A program made the translations under genes and the position numbers. From the sequence record PP400782: a stretch of DNA of 64,000 nucleotides. One strand, given 5' to 3'. Source of the stretch: Escherichia phage FL31. Within the stretch, counting starts at the first letter, position 1, and every line of letters begins with the position of its first letter. Below are positions 34,938 to 62,958 of this stretch, piece by piece. The notes beneath the pieces are model-generated. The model did no database searches. It worked only from the letters and a program-made list of their open reading frames with translations, and had not been told where the DNA came from.

Positions 34938-36038
34938 TTACGCTGTGAAGATTTTATCCCACATCGCAACAACCGCATCTCGGTTATACTTCTTCCATAC
35001 TGCTTCAGCACGTTTAACTCGAGCTTCGTATGTGTCAGTGAATTCTAATACAGCTTTTGTGTAAAGCGCAACTACTTCTTTCTTAGGAGTAGAGGAATCA
35101 ATTTCTACACGCACAGTATCTGGGTCATATTCGAATGTCGCGTGCGGATAATCCTTAAAAACTAACTGGATTACAGGGACACCTTTAGAGATGGCTTCAA
35201 TAGAACTATTCTCTACCGTACCTGTGTCAGGACACGTATTAATAAGTGCTTTAGCTGTTTTAAGACGTTCCATGATTTCACTGTGTGGAGCATCAATAAT
35301 AACAGGATATTTAGCTGGTGGCGCCCATTTGCTTGGACAGTATCCTGCACCATTTTCGCCTAGTGCTTTAATCGCTTCAAGAGCAACATCAGTACGACGC
35401 ATTTTAGTGTCATAACGTTGTGCACTAATAATCAGATCCGTCGCCGGAAGAACTTCAGGTTTCTCATTCAAACAAATAACCGGATAATCTTCGGCTTCAA
35501 ACAACGGATTTGCTCGCCAATAATCATAATCAATTTTGTCAGTCAGACCTGAAGTCATATAACAATATTTGCGTTCAAATTCACGGAAGGCTTTAGTAGG
35601 AGCATAACTCTTACCACCGTTCTTATGAATTTGAATAGTCTGGTCCCAAATTTGAACAATGCCACGAGATACCGGTTCAAATGGTGTTGCCATAAAATTC
35701 TTATGAACTTTAGAGAGACCCGCGTCTTTAATTGCCTGAACGGTTAGTTTGGTCGGTTCCATTGTAACAACGAAATCATACTCATTAATGCCGGCTAGTT
35801 CAACAATCTTACGAGCCATAGTATAACTCATACCTAGACTGAATTTAGTCAGATGACCAACAGGATGATGATTAACCTTCCAGTCACCAAACGTGTCATT
35901 ATCAAAGCCGATATAATCAATATCAGCACCGATGGACACAAGATATTTCAACACATTTAAATGTACTGCTTCAAGACCACCTTGTACACGTTCTGGGTTA
36001 AATGGGACTGCGCGAGATGGGATAAACATAACTTTCAT
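34938..36038 (-). CDS. GT-B fold glycosyltransferase (GT4-like); candidate DNA sugar transferase
   Basis: N-terminal GGLE motif (PERVQGGLEAVHLN) and C-terminal E-x7-E / G-x-P-V-I signature (TVENSSIEAISKGVPVIQL); lies between gene 39 and rIIA where T4 has no such gene. Confidence 0.65.
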   Translation of the reverse strand: MKVMFIPSRAVPFNPERVQGGLEAVHLNVLKYLVSIGADIDYIGFDNDTFGDWKVNHHPVGHLTKFSLGMSYTMARKIVELAGINEYDFVVTMEPTKLTVQAIKDAGLSKVHKNFMATPFEPVSRGIVQIWDQTIQIHKNGGKSYAPTKAFREFERKYCYMTSGLTDKIDYDYWRANPLFEAEDYPVICLNEKPEVLPATDLIISAQRYDTKMRRTDVALEAIKALGENGAGYCPSKWAPPAKYPVIIDAPHSEIMERLKTAKALINTCPDTGTVENSSIEAISKGVPVIQLVFKDYPHATFEYDPDTVRVEIDSSTPKKEVVALYTKAVLEFTDTYEARVKRAEAVWKKYNRDAVVAMWDKIFTA

Positions 36039-54803: not shown

Positions 54804-55166
54804 TTAAAAGAATTTAAATTTTTTCTTGGTCCGTTCATTAAAAGCTTGTTGTACTTGCATTGTAACACATTTTTCAACATGTGGTGCAAGTTCTGCTTTT
54901 CTGTCCTGGTCAAGAACTGCAAAGTCCATTACGATTTTACCATCAACCCAGTCTAGTTTTGTAATATAGACTATATGATGAGAACCATCTTCAAGCGTAA
55001 TCAGAATCTCTTGAATGACATTTTCCATTGCTGAACGGACAATTTTAAGAGATTCATTAAACACTCGTTCTTTGCGAATGTCTTCCCCTTCCGAAGAAGG
55101 GGATTCATCAACGATTTCTAGATTTAAATCATCGAGATTATTCATCGAAATCTTCCATTTCGTCAA
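54804..55166 (-). CDS. 40: gp40 (head vertex assembly protein) by position
   Basis: 120 aa ORF between uvsX and 41, as in T4; no motif-level confirmation. Confidence 0.5.
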   Translation of the reverse strand: MTKWKISMNNLDDLNLEIVDESPSSEGEDIRKERVFNESLKIVRSAMENVIQEILITLEDGSHHIVYITKLDWVDGKIVMDFAVLDQDRKAELAPHVEKCVTMQVQQAFNERTKKKFKFF

Positions 55167-56310
55167 GGTCGTTTTCTATATCTGCTGCAGACGGAGCATC
55201 AGAAGTTTTAACCGGAACTTTAGTTGTTGCTTTGCAATTAATAAGGTCGTTAACAGCGTCATCAACTTCTTTAATAGAAGAGATAGCACCTAGTTTATAT
55301 TTAGTTTCAATTGCATCTCGGAAAGGTTTGTGTTTAAACAACGGTCCCCAGAATTCTACACAATCAGTAGCTTTAGCACGCCATGATTTTTCTTCACGAA
55401 TCATTTCGCCTGTTTCTTCGTCAAGGAATTCACGAGCATACCACCCGGCTTTAGGCTTAACTACAAAACCAATTTCAGTTGCCATTTCTAACAAGCCACT
55501 GAATGGGTCAATACCGCCATCAAAATTAACCGTGATCGGGAAAGTAGATTTCTCTTTAACTGTACGAGATTTTTCTGCTTTCAACGTGAAGTCATAACCG
55601 GTCAATTCAGTGCCATCTTTAACCTGACGTTTAGAGATAAAGAATACAGTGTTAGCCGAGTAAAGAATACCTGTACCGCCGCCCATAATCTCTTTAGGAT
55701 ACAATCCGCCAATTTCCATTGCTGTATGGTTGATTGCAACACATGGAATATCTTTAATAGTCAGATAAGGAGTCACAATGCGGAACAGAGATTTAAGTGC
55801 CTTAGCACGAGACATATCACCTACGACTTTCTCGTTCAACGCATCTTCGGTTTCTTTCTTAGATGCAGTATTACCGATTGAATCGATAAAGATAATAACT
55901 TTATCACCGCGTTCAATCGCGTCAAGCTGATTAGTCATATCAACTTTAAGTTGTTCGACAGATTGAATAGGAGTATGAACTACACGGTCTAAATCAACAC
56001 CCATTGAACGAAAATAAGATTCCGAAGCACCAAATTCTGAATCATAGAACAAACAAATTGCATCTTTATATTTCTTCATATATGCTGCAACCATGGTCAG
56101 TCCAAACAATGTTTTAAAATGTTTAGAAGGTGCAGCAAAAATAGTCAAGCCTGATTGCAATCCTGCATTCAGTGCACCACCTAGTGCAATATTCAACATT
56201 GGAATACGAGTAGGGACTTCATCACGATTATTAAACAACTTAGACTTAGTCAAGTCTGCAGTCATTTTAGAAGTAGAAGCTTTAATCAGACGAGATTTTA
56301 GATCAGACAT
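55138..56310 (-). CDS. uvsX: UvsX recombinase (RecA-like)
   Basis: 390 aa; MSDLKSRLIKASTSK...GLTIFAAPSKHFKT...REFLDEETGEMIREEKSWRAK matches recalled T4 UvsX. Confidence 0.95.
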   Translation of the reverse strand: MSDLKSRLIKASTSKMTADLTKSKLFNNRDEVPTRIPMLNIALGGALNAGLQSGLTIFAAPSKHFKTLFGLTMVAAYMKKYKDAICLFYDSEFGASESYFRSMGVDLDRVVHTPIQSVEQLKVDMTNQLDAIERGDKVIIFIDSIGNTASKKETEDALNEKVVGDMSRAKALKSLFRIVTPYLTIKDIPCVAINHTAMEIGGLYPKEIMGGGTGILYSANTVFFISKRQVKDGTELTGYDFTLKAEKSRTVKEKSTFPITVNFDGGIDPFSGLLEMATEIGFVVKPKAGWYAREFLDEETGEMIREEKSWRAKATDCVEFWGPLFKHKPFRDAIETKYKLGAISSIKEVDDAVNDLINCKATTKVPVKTSDAPSAADIENDLDEMEDFDE

Positions 56311-56408: not shown

Positions 56409-56957
56409 TTAACGAGCCCATTTGATGATTTCTGTAATCAAACCATTACGTTCGCTTGCATTAAATCCTATAACTTTGTTAGCACCATCATGATTAAGTA
56501 ATTGATACGTTTGGATTTTGTTATGAATTGCAAACTCTTCAAAATATGAAATGACTGTATTAAAACCGAATGAAGACAAAGTAATAAGGTCGTCTTCAAA
56601 ACTTTCAGTCATTTCGTTACGTGTTAAAATAATTGTGAACACATCATGGTTTTGGCAAAGACGAACATAGTCCTGTTCATAAACGTCAAGAATCGAGTCC
56701 GCATCTTGTCGAATACGTCCATAAACCCAGTTACTAATATATCCACGGTCTAACAGATAAATCTTAGTAGGGTCTAAATAATTCAACATCGTTTCGAAAC
56801 AGCCGACTTCATTTCGAGACTTAACATCGAAACGCCCATCAACTGTTCGTTTAGGGAAATCAATCTTTACATATCTTTCACTAATTTCCATTATGTCATT
56901 AATGAAAGTTGTTTTACCAGCATTATCTGGGCCATCTACTAAAATAATTTTAGCCAT
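56409..56957 (-). CDS. P-loop NTPase, nucleoside/nucleotide kinase-like (182 aa)
   Basis: Walker A ILVDGPDNAGKTT at the N-terminus, dNK/thymidylate-kinase-like layout; between 42 and uvsX. Confidence 0.55.
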   Translation of the reverse strand: MAKIILVDGPDNAGKTTFINDIMEISERYVKIDFPKRTVDGRFDVKSRNEVGCFETMLNYLDPTKIYLLDRGYISNWVYGRIRQDADSILDVYEQDYVRLCQNHDVFTIILTRNEMTESFEDDLITLSSFGFNTVISYFEEFAIHNKIQTYQLLNHDGANKVIGFNASERNGLITEIIKWAR

Positions 56958-56958
56958 T

Positions 56959-57858
56959 TTATTCCTCGATTACGACATCTTCATATTTAGGTATATTATA
57001 CGGCGAAGAAATTAAAGCGTTAAAGTAGATGAACTCACCAAGACCTGGATGGAATACTTCTTCAGGATTTTCGAAATATTGAATCTTCGGACGTCCTTTA
57101 AGAATTTGATAGTACTCAGTTTTAGTTGGTTTAAAAATTCGAATCAACGCTTCTTCAGGATACTTATTTCTGTCGAAGCTATTATTTGGATCAGTTATAT
57201 AAAGCGGTTGACCTAATTGAATTGCGCATTCAACAACTTGTTCAAAACGATAACACGGGTCACTAATTCGAAATGGATGAAAAATACCATCTAGATGAAT
57301 AGGAGCCAAATCACCTACAAGACGCTGCATGATGGAAGGACGTATAACTTTCTGCGTTACGATAATCTTATTACCATCTGCACCAGCGTTAACCAGCACT
57401 TCTTTTTGACGTTCATTCAACACAGTAGTTTGAAGTGAACGATTAACCGACAACATATCAGTTTTTAAGAATTCATCAATATAAAAACGTGGTTTATTAG
57501 GGTCTGCAGTGATATTGAAATTGAATTCCACATCAAAAGCGCCGTCATATCCAGTGATATCTGTGATTAGAAAATCACAGTCATAATAAGCAATTAATGA
57601 ATCAACCACAAATTCATTTTCAGACCAGAAATATTTACGAGTGTTATACGCGTTATCTTTATACCATAATGGAACAAACTTAAATTCTGGAAAAAGACGT
57701 TCGCATTCTTTAATATCAGATGCATTACGTGGATATGTAATCACATCACCCGGATTAGCACGGTGCAAATGAAGTTGGAAGTTGCCATCCTTAAGGATAG
57801 CATACTGTCCAGTTTCATAAGACCGCATACTCAAAATAGGTACGCGGAAAATAGCCAT
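56959..57858 (-). CDS. hypothetical protein (299 aa) at the locus where T4 encodes beta-glucosyltransferase
   Basis: ORF translationally coupled to gene 42 (TAATG); no recognisable beta-gt similarity. Confidence 0.5.
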   Translation of the reverse strand: MAIFRVPILSMRSYETGQYAILKDGNFQLHLHRANPGDVITYPRNASDIKECERLFPEFKFVPLWYKDNAYNTRKYFWSENEFVVDSLIAYYDCDFLITDITGYDGAFDVEFNFNITADPNKPRFYIDEFLKTDMLSVNRSLQTTVLNERQKEVLVNAGADGNKIIVTQKVIRPSIMQRLVGDLAPIHLDGIFHPFRISDPCYRFEQVVECAIQLGQPLYITDPNNSFDRNKYPEEALIRIFKPTKTEYYQILKGRPKIQYFENPEEVFHPGLGEFIYFNALISSPYNIPKYEDVVIEE

Positions 57859-58574
57859 TAGTCAAGGAATCCTTTAACATAATCAAAATCACGTTCAAAC
57901 ACATGGGCACTTACCATGGTATGAGTATAATCACCAACTTCTACATCACATTCGTTAGCGATATAATGAAGTAATTTTCCTTGGAGATAAAAATCCAACT
58001 GCATAACAACAGCACAGTTCTGAGAACGCATATGACAGTGGGTATAAAGCTTACCATCACGAATATAATAAGTCACTGAGTCAGTACATGGATATTCAAG
58101 CGTTTCGTCTGAATCAAGCAAAGCCTGATCAGAACTTTCTAGAATTTGGAACACAACTCTTCGGGAGTTAGGCTTCTCTTTAAGTTCTTTTAGAAGAGCT
58201 GGTAATTGGGCCGCAATGCGAGGACCATAGAAAGTGTTGAAGTTCGCCGGCAAAACATCTGATTTTGGTTTAGAAATAAATTTAGCGACATTAGGATATG
58301 CCTTAAACGCTTCTTCTGCGTTGGTACCACCAGAAATCATAAACTTCCAGAAGTCTTCAGCATATTCATAAGAGATGCGGTTAATACGTGGGTCGGTCAT
58401 TTTGAATGATGATGGAGTGTCAACAACTACTGTCATAGACCCAATTTCATTACAACGTCCAATACGAGAATCAGTTACGAATTCCGGGTTTTCTAAAATT
58501 TCACGATTGACTGCTTTAAATGCGGTTTGAAAATCTGCGGCTTTGATATATTTCATTGTGTTATGTTTTCCCAT
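57858..58574 (-). CDS. 42: dCMP hydroxymethylase-like enzyme (thymidylate-synthase fold; gene 42 equivalent)
   Basis: TS-family core YPCTDSVTYYIRDGKLYTHCHMRSQNCAVVMQLDFY with Asp at the position that is Asn in thymidylate synthases (cytosine-type); synteny after gene 43. Confidence 0.75.
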   Translation of the reverse strand: MGKHNTMKYIKAADFQTAFKAVNREILENPEFVTDSRIGRCNEIGSMTVVVDTPSSFKMTDPRINRISYEYAEDFWKFMISGGTNAEEAFKAYPNVAKFISKPKSDVLPANFNTFYGPRIAAQLPALLKELKEKPNSRRVVFQILESSDQALLDSDETLEYPCTDSVTYYIRDGKLYTHCHMRSQNCAVVMQLDFYLQGKLLHYIANECDVEVGDYTHTMVSAHVFERDFDYVKGFLD

Positions 58575-58593: not shown

Positions 58594-58618
58594 ATTATAT
58601 ACTCAATTCGTAAAGCTT
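58594..58618 (-). promoter_or_regulatory. middle promoter candidate for gene 42 (MotA box-like GCTTTA + 11 bp + TATAAT)
   Basis: Minus strand aaGCTTTAcgaattgagtaTATAATaaattgtattGAGGtaaacATG. Confidence 0.4.
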
Positions 58619-58856
58619 ATTTGAATTTCTTGGCAATGTTGATATAACGTAAAGCTTCACCATCAATACTTCCAAGAACACTATGAAGAAATGCATCGGC
58701 GTAGTATTCCAATTGAACAGGTTCTTTAATCACTTTAGCCGCTTTAGTTTCAAACAGGCCCATCAGGGCCTTTTTAAGAATTTGTTCATTAGTGTTCAGA
58801 TTCATAGTCAAAATCTCTTCATTAAGTTGGTGGTTAAAAGTTTTTCTAGAAATCAT
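58617..58856 (-). CDS. hypothetical protein (79 aa)
   Basis: ORF overlapping the end of the upstream gene. Confidence 0.35.
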   Translation of the reverse strand: MISRKTFNHQLNEEILTMNLNTNEQILKKALMGLFETKAAKVIKEPVQLEYYADAFLHSVLGSIDGEALRYINIAKKFK

Positions 58857-60013
58857 TCCGGGTACCTCAAAGCGTCATCAGAGTTAGTTATATCAATAAT
58901 AGATATAGAGTTTTCTGCTAACCCGTTTTTAGATAATTGACGTTTATAATATCTTTCACAATATGTACACGTCGTCCCGCAGATTTCATTAGCACAATCG
59001 AAATCTGGATGTCTGAACCACCTTTTTTCTAAAAAGCCATCTAACAAAGAGGTTTCAATATTTACTGTATGTGAAAACTCAGTTTCGTTTTCAAGAGTGA
59101 AAATAGTCTCTAAAGGCTTCCACAGTTCTAACAAATTACCTTCAAACTTTTCAGAAGCGTATGCTTCAAGAACTTTCAAAATGTAGTCTGTGCTACCTGT
59201 ACGTCCTGAAACTTTGAATTGAGTGATACCAATATCATTATAAAGTTTCAAATCTTGAGGACGAACAAAACGAGTTCTCAACCAGTTAAATGGGTCTGTA
59301 TCACGAGCTTTAATACAGTGCTGCATAGGATATCCGTTTAAGGATTTAGCATCATCGGCTGTAACATCAGTACTATGGAAAATATAGCAAGAGTCACGAT
59401 AGCTACAATGTGTTGTATACCCTTTACCAGCATTAGAACAGAACTCATTTACAAGAACTTCAAATATTATATTGTTCTTATTGCAAAACTCTGCTGCACG
59501 CTTCAGGAAAGAAACTGAACGGTTCTTATGAATTCCACAGCAGACCTTTTTGATATTATACTGGTCATGCAAGTATTTGATTTGAGTTACAGCATCGACA
59601 TGTAGAATTGTTGAAACTTCAATCTCAATGTCTTTATTGACTTCACGAACAATTTCCATAACAACAGGGTTAGCGATAGTAATACGCCATACGCCTATTG
59701 ACCAAAGATACTGAACATAATCCTGAATAGCTTTCTTCTTCCACTCAACTAGTTCTCTTTTTGAACCAGGATTTATCGTGTTGAGTGTATAGTTAAAGCA
59801 AATACCTAATTCGTTACAACGTTTAACGTAATCTTCTAACATCTTTTTGTCAACGTCAGGAAGCCTAAAATCAGGTCTGGCTGCTACAAAAGCCATTTCT
59901 CTTGTAGAGCCGTATACTTCATTTATCAAGCTATTAGGATAAGTTTTATTGAGCTCTACGATTTTATCAAGAAGAGCTAAATCAAAATTCGTTCCGATTT
60001 TAAAAGTATTCAT
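58853..60013 (-). CDS. hypothetical Cys-rich protein (386 aa), possible metal/Fe-S binding; part of the sugar cluster
   Basis: Cys clusters CCGIHKN, FCSNAGKGYTTHCSYRDSC, C-terminal CANEICGTTCTYC; no confident family assignment. Confidence 0.5.
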   Translation of the reverse strand: MNTFKIGTNFDLALLDKIVELNKTYPNSLINEVYGSTREMAFVAARPDFRLPDVDKKMLEDYVKRCNELGICFNYTLNTINPGSKRELVEWKKKAIQDYVQYLWSIGVWRITIANPVVMEIVREVNKDIEIEVSTILHVDAVTQIKYLHDQYNIKKVCCGIHKNRSVSFLKRAAEFCNKNNIIFEVLVNEFCSNAGKGYTTHCSYRDSCYIFHSTDVTADDAKSLNGYPMQHCIKARDTDPFNWLRTRFVRPQDLKLYNDIGITQFKVSGRTGSTDYILKVLEAYASEKFEGNLLELWKPLETIFTLENETEFSHTVNIETSLLDGFLEKRWFRHPDFDCANEICGTTCTYCERYYKRQLSKNGLAENSISIIDITNSDDALRYPE

Positions 60014-60069: not shown

Positions 60070-60471
60070 TTATAGATTCGGTTTATATGATTTAAATGTT
60101 TCGAATTCGCCTTTATTCATAAGAGCTTTGAATTCGTCAGGACGCATAGCTTTGTCGTCGATAATCCAATCATATACTGGTTTATGTGTTAGCAAATTAT
60201 GGTACTTCAAGCCAATGTTCGCCAAGTTCTGAATCAGACTTGGGAGAATGTCAATTGCTATACGACCAGGACCTACTGACTTCATACCGCGAGCAGTGTA
60301 AAGCGTTATGGTATGCCCTGCATCATACAGGGCATTAATGGCAGTCACCATTTCGACGTCTGGTTTGAAGTTCACGTAATCACGATTGTTATTCCACTCT
60401 GTTATACAATCATCGACATCAAAACAAAGATTAAGCATGTTTTCTACACGGTGCATTAGATTCGTTCCCAT
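60070..60471 (-). CDS. HAD-superfamily phosphatase (small, sugar-phosphate phosphatase-like)
   Basis: HAD motif I FDVDDCIT; motif II ITLYTAR; motif III/IV K...WIIDDK. Confidence 0.6.
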   Translation of the reverse strand: MGTNLMHRVENMLNLCFDVDDCITEWNNNRDYVNFKPDVEMVTAINALYDAGHTITLYTARGMKSVGPGRIAIDILPSLIQNLANIGLKYHNLLTHKPVYDWIIDDKAMRPDEFKALMNKGEFETFKSYKPNL

Positions 60472-62141
60472 TGATGAGTGATATCGCCACCGATTGGACG
60501 ATAGGAAACACCAGTTTCTTTATCAGTTAGTACCCATTTACCAGGATTTTTTGTAATCAGAGTAGCCGTTACAGGTTCTGCTACGTCATAACTAATAGAG
60601 CCGTCTTGAAGTACACGGCCCATGTTACGTAATTGCTTAGTCAGAAGTTCCATACCTTTATAATATGCGGCTACCGCTTTAAGTGGATTATTCTTGAAAT
60701 AACCACCTAATGCAATCCAGATAATTGCTACAGCCAAATGATGATATTCATTAAACGAACTCAGCTTTCCATATTTGTAAACTAATGGATTGATGTTAAT
60801 AGTCACATTACAAGTTGTTTCATCAATAGTAAACTGTCCCCAGGTCGGATTAGCATTGAATTCATCATAACCTGAAACAGCATAAAGCACTTTAGCTTCA
60901 TCATACAATTTTGGCCCGTAAATCTTGGTTTCGCCAAAATATCCACGAGGGTCGATAAACTTGACTTCGCCGTTATCAGTAATCATAGTATTACTGAAGT
61001 TCGGGTCACCATGAATAACAGAGTACTGTCCCTGAGAACGGTTATGATAACGAATAAGGTGTTCTAAAGCTTGTTTCAGCATTGGCTTCAGACGTCTAAT
61101 CTTAGTGTAGTTCACATGTGTGATTTTACCAAATGAATCAATCAATGGTTGAATGCTTTCACAACGATCAATAACTTTCGTATAGAATTCTTTAGTGAAA
61201 TCACGACGAACAGTTTCAGGACTTACAAAATAAGTGTCTGTGCTGAATTTCAGTGCATCTAAAATTGCATCAACAATTTGTGGACGAGCAAGACTTGATT
61301 TGGATTTAATATATTCAAATGCCGGCTTACCTTTAATGCGTTCCATTTCAAAGTTATTTTCATTAACAGAAACTAACTGAGGAACTGAATCTGATTTCAC
61401 TTTCAAATACCACGAAATCTCATCTTTCTGAAGAGCTCGTCCCTGTTCGGTTAATGCGAATTTAGTTACAGTTTCTTCACCAATTTCAACTGCATTAAAA
61501 CTACGATTAAGTTCACGAACTTCATGGGCCTTTTCAAGTTTAGGCATATCACCTAAATCAATTAGATTCATAAGCTCTGATTTATTGAATGCGCTGCCGT
61601 AAAGGAATTCTACGAAATCACGTCCTTTGCAGTATTCATGAATTTCCTCATCAGTAGAACCCATATAGAATTCCCAGTCTTTGAACTGATAAATTCCTAC
61701 AACATTACCACCTGTTGAACCTACGTTAGTGATATTTTCACCGTCGAAATTATACCGACATTCATCACCCTTAACATAGATTGCGTTAACATTCCAAGAC
61801 CATGAACCAAAATCAGGAATAATATCACACCAGTTAACAATTACGTTATGGCCGTCTAAATCTTTGTGTAATTTAGCAAGAGCATAAGCAGAACCATACG
61901 CTTCATCAACTGTACGAATAGTCACATTGAACCCTTCTTGCTCACAATAAGCTCGAACAGTTTCAGCAAATTTTGAATGAACTACTACAATAATTTCATC
62001 TGCGCCAAGGTCAGAATAAATTGTATACAAATTGCTCAGAATAGTGTCTTGTTTATAGTTAACAAGCACCTTAGGAATATGATGCGTTATTGGATACAAA
62101 CGAGTTGCCAGTCCAGCACCAAGAATAACAGCTTTTTTCAT
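60456..62141 (-). CDS. bifunctional sugar-1-phosphate nucleotidyltransferase (N-terminal) / sugar kinase (C-terminal, APH/ChoK-like fold)
   Basis: N-terminal GAGLATRL nucleotidyltransferase signature; C-terminal Brenner-type IHGDPNFSNTMI and VKFIDPRG kinase motifs. Confidence 0.7.
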   Translation of the reverse strand: MKKAVILGAGLATRLYPITHHIPKVLVNYKQDTILSNLYTIYSDLGADEIIVVVHSKFAETVRAYCEQEGFNVTIRTVDEAYGSAYALAKLHKDLDGHNVIVNWCDIIPDFGSWSWNVNAIYVKGDECRYNFDGENITNVGSTGGNVVGIYQFKDWEFYMGSTDEEIHEYCKGRDFVEFLYGSAFNKSELMNLIDLGDMPKLEKAHEVRELNRSFNAVEIGEETVTKFALTEQGRALQKDEISWYLKVKSDSVPQLVSVNENNFEMERIKGKPAFEYIKSKSSLARPQIVDAILDALKFSTDTYFVSPETVRRDFTKEFYTKVIDRCESIQPLIDSFGKITHVNYTKIRRLKPMLKQALEHLIRYHNRSQGQYSVIHGDPNFSNTMITDNGEVKFIDPRGYFGETKIYGPKLYDEAKVLYAVSGYDEFNANPTWGQFTIDETTCNVTININPLVYKYGKLSSFNEYHHLAVAIIWIALGGYFKNNPLKAVAAYYKGMELLTKQLRNMGRVLQDGSISYDVAEPVTATLITKNPGKWVLTDKETGVSYRPIGGDITHQWERI

Positions 62142-62322: not shown

Positions 62323-62958
62323 TCATTGTTCGCCTCGTAACATGGCACCTAGTGCACCGCCTGGATGGAACTTAAGGAAATCATTAGAGGTAAATCCACG
62401 TTCAGACGAAAGGTTGATAGCAAACGTATCGATAAGCGCTAACAATAATGTAGTGGACATTGTCGGAGCTAAAGAGTTCTCGTCAACTTCTACCGCGATA
62501 CCGGTACAGAACGTATAATCAAAAAGAGCTTCGTATTCTTGTGGAATGTCAGGGTTACAATGTAACAGAATCTGTTTAACCTGAGGACGAATCATACGAA
62601 GATGTTTAGCAACACCTATCATTTCTTCAGTCTTACCAGAACGACTGATGTGAACTAATACATCATTAGGTGCAATAAATCCTGCGTCACCATGAGAATA
62701 ATGCCCAGTGTTCAAGTACATACTTGGGATACCGAGTGAAGCAAAAGTCTCGGAAGCTTTAGTTGCGATATTAGCGTTCTTACCAACACCTGTAATAATT
62801 ACTCGGCTTTCATAATTACTAAGTCCCGGGCGTCGAAGAGTTTCTAGAATAGCATTATAACGAGCAGGGTTTTGACTAATTACTTTGGCCATAGCGGCCA
62901 AAGAAGAAGCTTGTTTTATGATTGCGTCAATAGCGATAGTAATAGGAGTAGTTTTCAT
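62323..62958 (-). CDS. SIS-domain sugar-phosphate isomerase (KdsD/KpsF arabinose-5-phosphate isomerase-like, lacking CBS domains)
   Basis: VIITGVGKNANIATKASETFASLGIPSMYLNTGHYSHGDAGFIAPNDVLVHISRSGKTEE parallels the recalled KdsD SIS core (GKSGHIG...ATFASTGTPS...HGDLGMV...AISNSGES). Confidence 0.7.
   Translation of the reverse strand: MKTTPITIAIDAIIKQASSLAAMAKVISQNPARYNAILETLRRPGLSNYESRVIITGVGKNANIATKASETFASLGIPSMYLNTGHYSHGDAGFIAPNDVLVHISRSGKTEEMIGVAKHLRMIRPQVKQILLHCNPDIPQEYEALFDYTFCTGIAVEVDENSLAPTMSTTLLLALIDTFAINLSSERGFTSNDFLKFHPGGALGAMLRGEQ

Follow-up and report, generated by a model that had tools for sequence, protein, structure and literature searches.

The subject of this analysis is a pair of neighboring genes on the minus strand of Escherichia phage FL31 (sequence record PP400782), located between uvsX and a thymidylate synthase (TS) homolog in a window of 64,000 nucleotides, the whole stretch of DNA that was analyzed. 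One gene codes for a protein of 299 amino acids, which we call GT1 for its predicted role as a first glycosyltransferase (GT), and the other for a P-loop kinase of 182 amino acids (Table 1). The window comes from a Mosigvirus: the region shares 99.2% identity with Escherichia phage APCEc01 and approximately 99% with many other Mosigvirus genomes, including HY126 and RB69. In phage T4 the gene order in the equivalent slot is uvsX-segA-b-gt-42; segA and the gene for beta-glucosyltransferase (beta-GT) occupy the place that the GT1 and kinase genes fill here. An earlier, sequence-only reading of this DNA had placed two open reading frames (ORFs) at the beta-GT locus, and their coordinates and lengths proved exact. 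It had also noted that the 299-amino-acid ORF is coupled to its upstream neighbor, and this observation now extends to the kinase: the stop codon of the TS homolog overlaps the GT1 start codon (gacTAATGgct), and a single base separates the GT1 stop from the kinase start (TAAaATG), so that all three genes, and not the first pair alone, are translationally coupled. GT1 is found in 348 phage records and the kinase in 343, with 30 and 37 invariant alignment columns, respectively; therefore, both are genuine genes and not chance ORFs.

Table 1. Features of the FL31 window that are discussed in the text (coordinates are those of the whole window; aa, amino acids)
Feature	Coordinates	Strand	Length (aa)	Assignment and counterparts
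GT1	56959-57858	-	299	Predicted compact GT-B glycosyltransferase; family of RB69 gp46:47, DLP3 gp79 and Thanatos TH1_063
Kinase	56409-56957	-	182	Thymidylate-kinase-like P-loop deoxynucleoside monophosphate (dNMP) kinase; RB69 gp45, DLP3 gp78
TS homolog	57858-58574	-	238	Flavin/O2-dependent 5-hydroxy-dCMP synthase by sequence; N169
uvsX	55138-56310			Downstream of the kinase gene
Small ORF	58617-58856	-	79	Overlaps the U32 stop by 4 nucleotides; no Pfam match
U32-family protein	58853-60013	-	386	RB69 gp50; Pfam Peptidase_U32, E 7e-11; same operon
HAD-type phosphatase	60070-60471	-	133	RB69 gp51; analogous to HY126 AfhF; PHROG 1238, E 8e-43
Bifunctional sugar kinase/UDP-arabinose pyrophosphorylase	60456-62141	-	561	RB69 gp52:53; analogous to HY126 AfhE
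SIS-domain arabinose-5-phosphate isomerase	62323-62958	-	211	RB69 gp55; Pfam SIS, E 1e-9
GT2	34938-36038	-	366	GT4-like; RB69 gp3/ORF003c; E 2.6e-248 to HY126 PDB 9iqz; rIIA on one side and a topoisomerase gene on the other, outside the cluster

The sequence-only reading took the upstream neighbor for gene 42, the dCMP hydroxymethylase of T4, and this label has to be given up. The TS homolog matches the HY126 enzyme (PDB 9iqc/9ir2) with an E value of 8e-160 and T4 gp42 with one of only 2.5e-6. In the numbering of E. coli ThyA, by alignment, it has E143, C146, N169, and D177, whereas T4 gp42 has D169; thus, both the aspartate at position 169 and the close similarity to gp42 that would place it among the gp42-type hydroxymethylases are missing. 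Flavin- and O2-dependent synthesis of 5-hydroxy-dCMP (5hodCMP) has been demonstrated for RB69 gp48 (PMC13326640). Judged by its sequence, the TS homolog in the window is such a synthase, with the D169N signature. Because the enzyme coupled to GT1 is a dCMP 5-hydroxylase, the acceptor for a sugar would be 5-hydroxycytosine (5hoC) and not 5-hydroxymethylcytosine (hmC). The synthase alone leaves mere traces of 5hoC in DNA in vivo (PMC13326640).

Published work already covers this locus and annotates it computationally, and the functions of GT1 and the kinase are predicted ones. Arabinosylated cytosine was reported for RB69, the type Mosigvirus, in 2018, with a suggested role for a module located between the DNA polymerase gene and uvsX. 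In a survey of 2021 the genes associated with arabinosylation included RB69p045 ("homologs among thymidylate kinases") and p047, and RB69 ORF045, ORF046, and ORF047 have been treated as such since 2018-2021. By structure prediction, RB69 gp46:47 and DLP3 gp79 were then named "arabinosyltransferase 1" and RB69 gp45 and DLP3 gp78 "nucleotide kinase" (Lee et al., NAR 2026; PMC13326640); no functional difference separates these pairs from GT1 and the kinase of the window. Protection against restriction enzymes, the Brig1 DNA glycosylase, and type I CRISPR-Cas has been reported for arabinosyl-5-hydroxycytosine DNA in these coliphages, which are common and include candidates for therapy. The identity of the first-sugar enzyme and the need for an extra kinase decide how the modification could be reconstituted in vitro or eliminated to obtain phages that can be engineered and sequenced; the value that remains in the locus lies in the acceptor of GT1 and in the reason for the universal retention of a second dNMP kinase.

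The sequence-only reading found no recognizable motifs in the 299-amino-acid protein and pointed to remote-homology searches and structure prediction. At the sequence level its description holds: GT1 has no Pfam match at E values up to 1, no meaningful match in NCBIfam, and none in PADLOC; a profile of 58 family sequences matches no PDB chain sequence; and the corresponding PHROG 3891 is annotated "unknown function". At the fold level it does not. The predicted structure consists of two Rossmann-like beta/alpha/beta domains with a cleft between them, which is the GT-B architecture, and the fold comparison figures are 17.5 for sucrose-phosphate synthase (6kih), 16.7 for BshA, and 15.7 for PimA, and, among phage glycosyltransferases, 14.4 for the 366-amino-acid HY126 enzyme (9iqz) and 13.1 for T4 alpha-GT. 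This model-based assignment independently reproduces the published one. The GT4-type retaining GT-B enzymes (6kih, BshA 6n1x, and PimA 2gej) are only 8-12% identical to GT1 and do not share their canonical motif set with it, and unlike them GT1 has a C-terminal domain cut to approximately 110 residues. The invariant motifs of the GT1 family are SMRS near residue 10, KDGN at residues 23-26, PFRxSD at 195-200, TDPN at 222-225, and HPG at 270-272. In the C-terminal domain, R197, K246, and H270-P271-G272 are invariant and an acidic residue at position 275 is usually kept, as read from the family alignment.

GT1 is 99% identical to its counterparts in RB69 and HY126 and 46-47% identical to those in DLP3 and Thanatos; it is orthologous to RB69 gp46:47, DLP3 gp79, and TH1_063 and lies directly downstream of an N169 synthase. 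The ORF is intact in the window, whereas the RB69 GenBank entry splits its counterpart by a sequencing error. The Thanatos ortholog brings up another function, because TH1_063 (L005 5995-6897), which is 47.5% identical to GT1, converted UTP and xylose-1-phosphate to UDP-xylose in vitro and was reported as a UDP-xylose pyrophosphorylase. By this precedent GT1 would be a UDP-pentose pyrophosphorylase, producing the activated sugar instead of transferring it. We regard this function as highly improbable for the 299-amino-acid protein. Its predicted fold is GT-B and not that of a nucleotidyltransferase, and in the same operon the 561-amino-acid protein has a bona fide N-terminal NTP_transferase domain (Pfam, E 8e-10), followed by weaker matches to APH/EcKL/RIO1-like kinase families in its C-terminus; its HY126 counterpart was reported as a UDP-arabinose pyrophosphorylase (PMC13326640). 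The Thanatos cluster likewise has its own protein with an NTP-transferase domain, TH1_060, and GT1 also occurs in modules that have no sugar-activation genes. The activity of TH1_063 could reflect a transferase that binds UDP-pentose running in reverse or catalyzing a side reaction, or could come from a contaminant, and the acceptors used in the published transfer tests had no 5-hydroxyl group.

Two glycosyltransferases are encoded in the window, and their distribution suggests the order in which they act. GT1 is widespread, with hosts of its 348 records in Escherichia, Acinetobacter, Klebsiella, Serratia, Proteus, Yersinia, Shewanella, and other genera, whereas GT2 was found in only 211 phage records, with one copy in Mosigvirus and two in Acinetobacter phages. 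Di- and triarabinosylation have been reported for Mosigvirus and Acinetobacter phages, in agreement with one versus two copies of GT2. Because GT1 is the broader of the two and the copy number of GT2 tracks di- and triarabinosylation, GT1 would be the first, base-proximal transferase. Thus, GT1 is predicted, in part from its modeled fold, to be a UDP-arabinofuranose:5-hydroxycytosine arabinosyltransferase that adds the base-proximal sugar, and GT2 is the predicted second arabinosyltransferase. The two are not recent paralogs, since comparison of their profiles detected no similarity (hhalign probability, 0.6%). The sequence-only reading had proposed a second modification enzyme at this locus, for example one that transfers a second sugar to hmC DNA. 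The DNA-modification pathway and the glycosyltransferase survive from that proposal; the hmC acceptor and the second position in the order of sugars do not, and the sugar is predicted to be arabinofuranose.

In several respects GT1 resembles T4 beta-GT, which also sits between a TS homolog and uvsX, has the GT-B fold, places a sugar onto an oxygen on a C5-modified cytosine, and protects phage DNA. However, the GT1 hidden Markov model (HMM) does not match b-gt of T4 at E values up to 10. T4 beta-GT has 351 amino acids, is basic (isoelectric point [pI], 9.05), and transfers glucose to 5-hydroxymethylcytosine, whereas GT1 of the window is shorter, acidic (pI, 5.1), and predicted to transfer arabinofuranose to 5-hydroxycytosine, on DNA.

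The kinase-like character that the sequence-only reading gave to the 182-amino-acid protein from its Walker-A stretch (ILVDGPDNAGKTT, residues 5-17) was borne out. The protein has the P-loop fold of nucleoside monophosphate (NMP) kinases, with thymidylate kinases (TMKs) closest, and its motifs GPDNAGKTT, FPKRT, and DRGY, invariant or nearly so in the family, correspond to those that define TMKs (P-loop GxDxxGK(S/T)T, FP(E/Q)R(S/T), and DR(Y/H/F)). In profile alignments with the vaccinia and yeast enzymes, GPDNAGKTT stands against GLDKSGKTT, including the P-loop aspartate, and FPKRT against FPQRST; the DR motif aligns to yeast TMK in a second stretch that is weak and below threshold. Vaccinia A48R (2v54) and the yeast enzyme (1tmk) are only 14-18% identical to the window kinase, which is shorter than either. 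Neither GT1 nor the kinase is clearly homologous to an unrelated characterized family, an outcome that favors the sequence-only reading. The lineage is that of TMK-type dNMP kinases, and we infer 5-hydroxy-dCMP as the substrate; T4 gp1, a dNMP kinase that phosphorylates a phage-specific modified dCMP, is its proposed functional analog. Of the nucleotide kinase for a modified dNMP envisaged in the sequence-only reading, the enzyme type stands, plausibly one dedicated to a modified nucleotide, and this nucleotide would be 5-hydroxy-dCMP rather than hm-dCMP.

Alternatively, the kinase could be a plain dTMP kinase, or one of broad dNMP specificity, that adds to the supply of nucleotides and is tied to the modification genes by position only. 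Its TMK fold and motifs, and the "thymidylate kinase" annotation that many records carry, agree with this explanation, yet we find it improbable. The window kinase fails the curated TMK models: it has no match to Pfam Thymidylate_kin (PF02223) and scores 15.5 bits with TIGR00041 against a cutoff of 83. Some distant relatives do better; a member on a 356-kb phage contig matches Thymidylate_kin with an E value of 3.9e-5, and several metagenomic members carry PF02223. Moreover, the kinase follows GT1 and N169 synthases and not T4-like phages in general: its genus counts equal those of GT1, and the two hmC-type phages examined, T4 and Serratia phage PS2, have no kinase at this locus. This phyletic linkage to 5hodCMP synthases suggests a cytosine derivative, rather than dTMP, as the substrate.

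Unrelated virus families share the same gene order, which also speaks against a bond of position only. The N169 synthase, GT1, and the kinase follow one another, overlapping or nearly abutting, in HY126, Thanatos, WSPA, KLB31, DLP3, and the Pootjesviridae phage P9VFCI, as well as at five metagenomic loci, jumbo-phage contigs among them. Among the loci inspected we found no lineage that breaks this triad and could thereby tell whether the kinase goes with the synthase or with GT1; an apparent exception, L013, was dismissed, as its GT1 gene is merely interrupted by a run of Ns in the assembly. Three metagenomic loci have a minimal module composed of a flavodoxin-like gene, the synthase, GT1, and the kinase, without sugar-activation genes. 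At the other extreme, a 356-kb metagenomic contig (L001 2110-7682) carries in a row an AfhE-like NTP-transferase/kinase, a HAD phosphatase, an N169 synthase, a 200-amino-acid gene, GT1, and the kinase. With the module on a contig of jumbo-phage size, glycosylated 5-hydroxycytosine probably occurs well outside Straboviridae and Pootjesviridae. In Rhizobium phage P9VFCI the GT1 homolog (HMM E value, 1.7e-25) also follows the N169 synthase, and the base-proximal sugar in the family of this phage is galactose. Therefore, what the GT1 family shares seems to be the acceptor rather than the sugar.

Taken together, the coupled core of synthase, GT1, and TMK-like kinase would let the phage replace cytosine with O-glycosylated 5-hydroxycytosine, a reading to which we assign a probability of approximately 0.6. 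The TS homolog would hydroxylate dCMP at C5 with flavin and O2, a reaction demonstrated for the enzymes of RB69 and HY126, which are nearly identical to it. The 182-amino-acid kinase may then convert 5-hydroxy-dCMP to the diphosphate with ATP, after which the host nucleoside diphosphate kinase would form the triphosphate and the phage polymerase would incorporate it. GT1 would move the first arabinose from UDP-arabinofuranose to the 5-hydroxyl of cytosine, most likely on DNA after replication, by analogy with the alpha- and beta-GTs of T4, and the unlinked GT2 would attach the second arabinose. UDP-arabinofuranose would be supplied by the products of the upstream isomerase, kinase-pyrophosphorylase, and phosphatase genes; the role given for RB69 gp51 and HY126 AfhF is conversion of arabinose-1,5-bisphosphate to arabinose-1-phosphate (PMC13326640, citing He et al.). 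Such a pathway would follow the logic of T4 (gp42, gp1, and glucosyltransferase), but with a hydroxylase as the first enzyme and with a kinase and a GT-B enzyme of other lineages.

Several observations weigh against this pathway. The literature search returned no direct activity for GT1 or the 182-amino-acid kinase, and purified DLP3 glycosyltransferases, tested singly, did not arabinosylate 5hoC-DNA with UDP-arabinofuranose or UDP-arabinopyranose ("data not shown"; PMC13326640). By sequence GT1 belongs to no Pfam glycosyltransferase family, Glycos_transf_1 and Glyco_trans_4 included, and the second glutamate of an EX7E-type motif is not visible in its family alignment. With a median pI of 5.2, versus 9.05 for T4 beta-GT, the GT1 family is acidic, which is unusual, although not disqualifying, for an enzyme that acts on DNA; as an argument against DNA binding by GT1, pI is suggestive but too weak, and we set it aside. 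The main uncertainty concerns the kinase. RB69 gp159, a dNMP kinase of the T4 gp1 type, phosphorylates 5hodCMP (PMC13326640), and Rhizobium phage P9VFCI carries both kinase types; the TMK-like kinase looks redundant beside gp159, though it is strongly conserved, and a second kinase has been retained although the gp1-type enzyme accepts 5hodCMP.

On the one hand, a pathway that acts before replication would give the second kinase a task. GT1 would arabinosylate free 5hodCMP, the TMK-like kinase would be specific for arabinosyl-5-hydroxy-dCMP, which would be too bulky for a gp1-type kinase, and the polymerase would incorporate a glycosylated dNTP. The GT1 and kinase genes are always neighbors and usually overlap, which suggests one-to-one production or channeling, and the acidity of GT1 and the negative DLP3 assays point the same way. 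On the other hand, established glycosylations of phage pyrimidines are described as taking place on DNA, and a plain 5hodCMP kinase explains the minimal modules equally well. Furthermore, none of the approximately 260 family members is a fusion of GT1 and kinase, and in L012 a homing endonuclease gene parts the two, so that tight coupling is dispensable. We therefore consider this pathway unlikely; if true, it would contrast with the postreplicative paradigm of the T-even phages. The kinase might instead act on DNA or on the sugar, or serve as a noncatalytic partner that activates GT1, rather than act on free nucleotides. A precedent for partnership exists in DLP3, where gp76 and gp77 are active only jointly and the single glycosyltransferases are inactive (PMC13326640). 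The invariant residues of the kinase (P-loop lysine and threonine, P-loop aspartate, FPxR, and DR) are those of an active NMP kinase, which makes a role away from free nucleotides very doubtful. Transfer from a UDP-sugar needs no activation of the acceptor, as is established in glycosyltransferase chemistry. The preferred reading remains postreplicative transfer by GT1 onto 5hoC, with the kinase acting on 5hodCMP.

Comparison of the loci also yielded some observations on the history of the module. The endonuclease gene between GT1 and the kinase in the metagenomic phage L012 (4097-5011) is of the NUMOD3 type. The equivalent slot in T4 holds the homing endonuclease gene segA, and mobile endonucleases appear to have landed at this locus repeatedly. 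In Serratia phage PS2 the synthase is of the D169 (hmC) type and is accompanied by beta-GT and beta-alpha-GT genes; after this synthase, at the position of GT1, gp042 (L009 5001-5927) is a full-length GT1 homolog (HMM E value, 1.8e-27) in which all invariant motifs (SMRS, KDGN, PFRxSD, TDPN, and HPG) are lost. This protein has the look of a remnant from a 5-hydroxycytosine module that was replaced, or of a pseudo-enzyme put to a new use; the arabinose module is intact in Serratia phage WSPA, which record taxonomy places in the same genus. In three metagenomic phage contigs, a Flavodoxin_2 gene (NAD(P)H-dependent FMN-reductase-like) lies shortly upstream of the N169 synthase (L002 4539-5054, L012 1182-1706, and L013 482-982), directly adjoining it in L002 and L013 and one gene apart in L012. 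Such a gene is consistent with the chemistry of a flavin-dependent hydroxylase; the Mosigvirus cluster in the window has none.

A search of 1.84 billion representative proteins gave only six relatives of the 79-amino-acid ORF upstream of the synthase; one of these is 42 amino acids long and matches query residues 1-34 alone, and HY126 annotates only 41 amino acids at this position. The ORF may be nonfunctional. Klebsiella phage KLB31 encodes at the same position a bona fide chorismate mutase (L010 5655-5894; Pfam CM_2, E 1.3e-9), the enzyme that makes prephenate, and this gene is translationally coupled between those for the U32 protein and the synthase. A chorismate mutase was considered for the 79-amino-acid ORF as well and rejected, as this orphan family of six is unrelated to the KLB31 enzyme. 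In Erwinia phage Virsaitis27, too, a gene annotated as chorismate mutase adjoins the U32 gene.

These neighbors draw attention to the U32 protein itself, whose RB69 counterpart was labeled only "sugar or heterocycle reductase", with no mention of U32 or prephenate (PMC13326640). U32 proteins are linked to O2-independent hydroxylations, and RlhA is needed for 5-hydroxycytidine 2501 in 23S rRNA. TrhP is the other RNA-linked member, whereas UbiU/V act on ubiquinone precursors and need prephenate, the demonstrated oxygen donor of that pathway. By analogy, the phage U32 protein may be a candidate O2-independent, prephenate-dependent cytosine C5-hydroxylase that backs up the flavin/O2 synthase; the two would then parallel the pairing of flavin/O2 and U32/prephenate routes in ubiquinone synthesis. 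If true, this route would allow oxygen-free synthesis of 5-hydroxycytosine for growth in the anaerobic gut. The U32 gene is absent from DLP3, Acinetobacter is not among the leading host genera in the U32 search, and approximately 40 records of Escherichia phages with GT1 lack the gene, so that the correlation with host is imperfect. Where it does occur, in 221 phage records, the U32 protein is at least 80% identical throughout.

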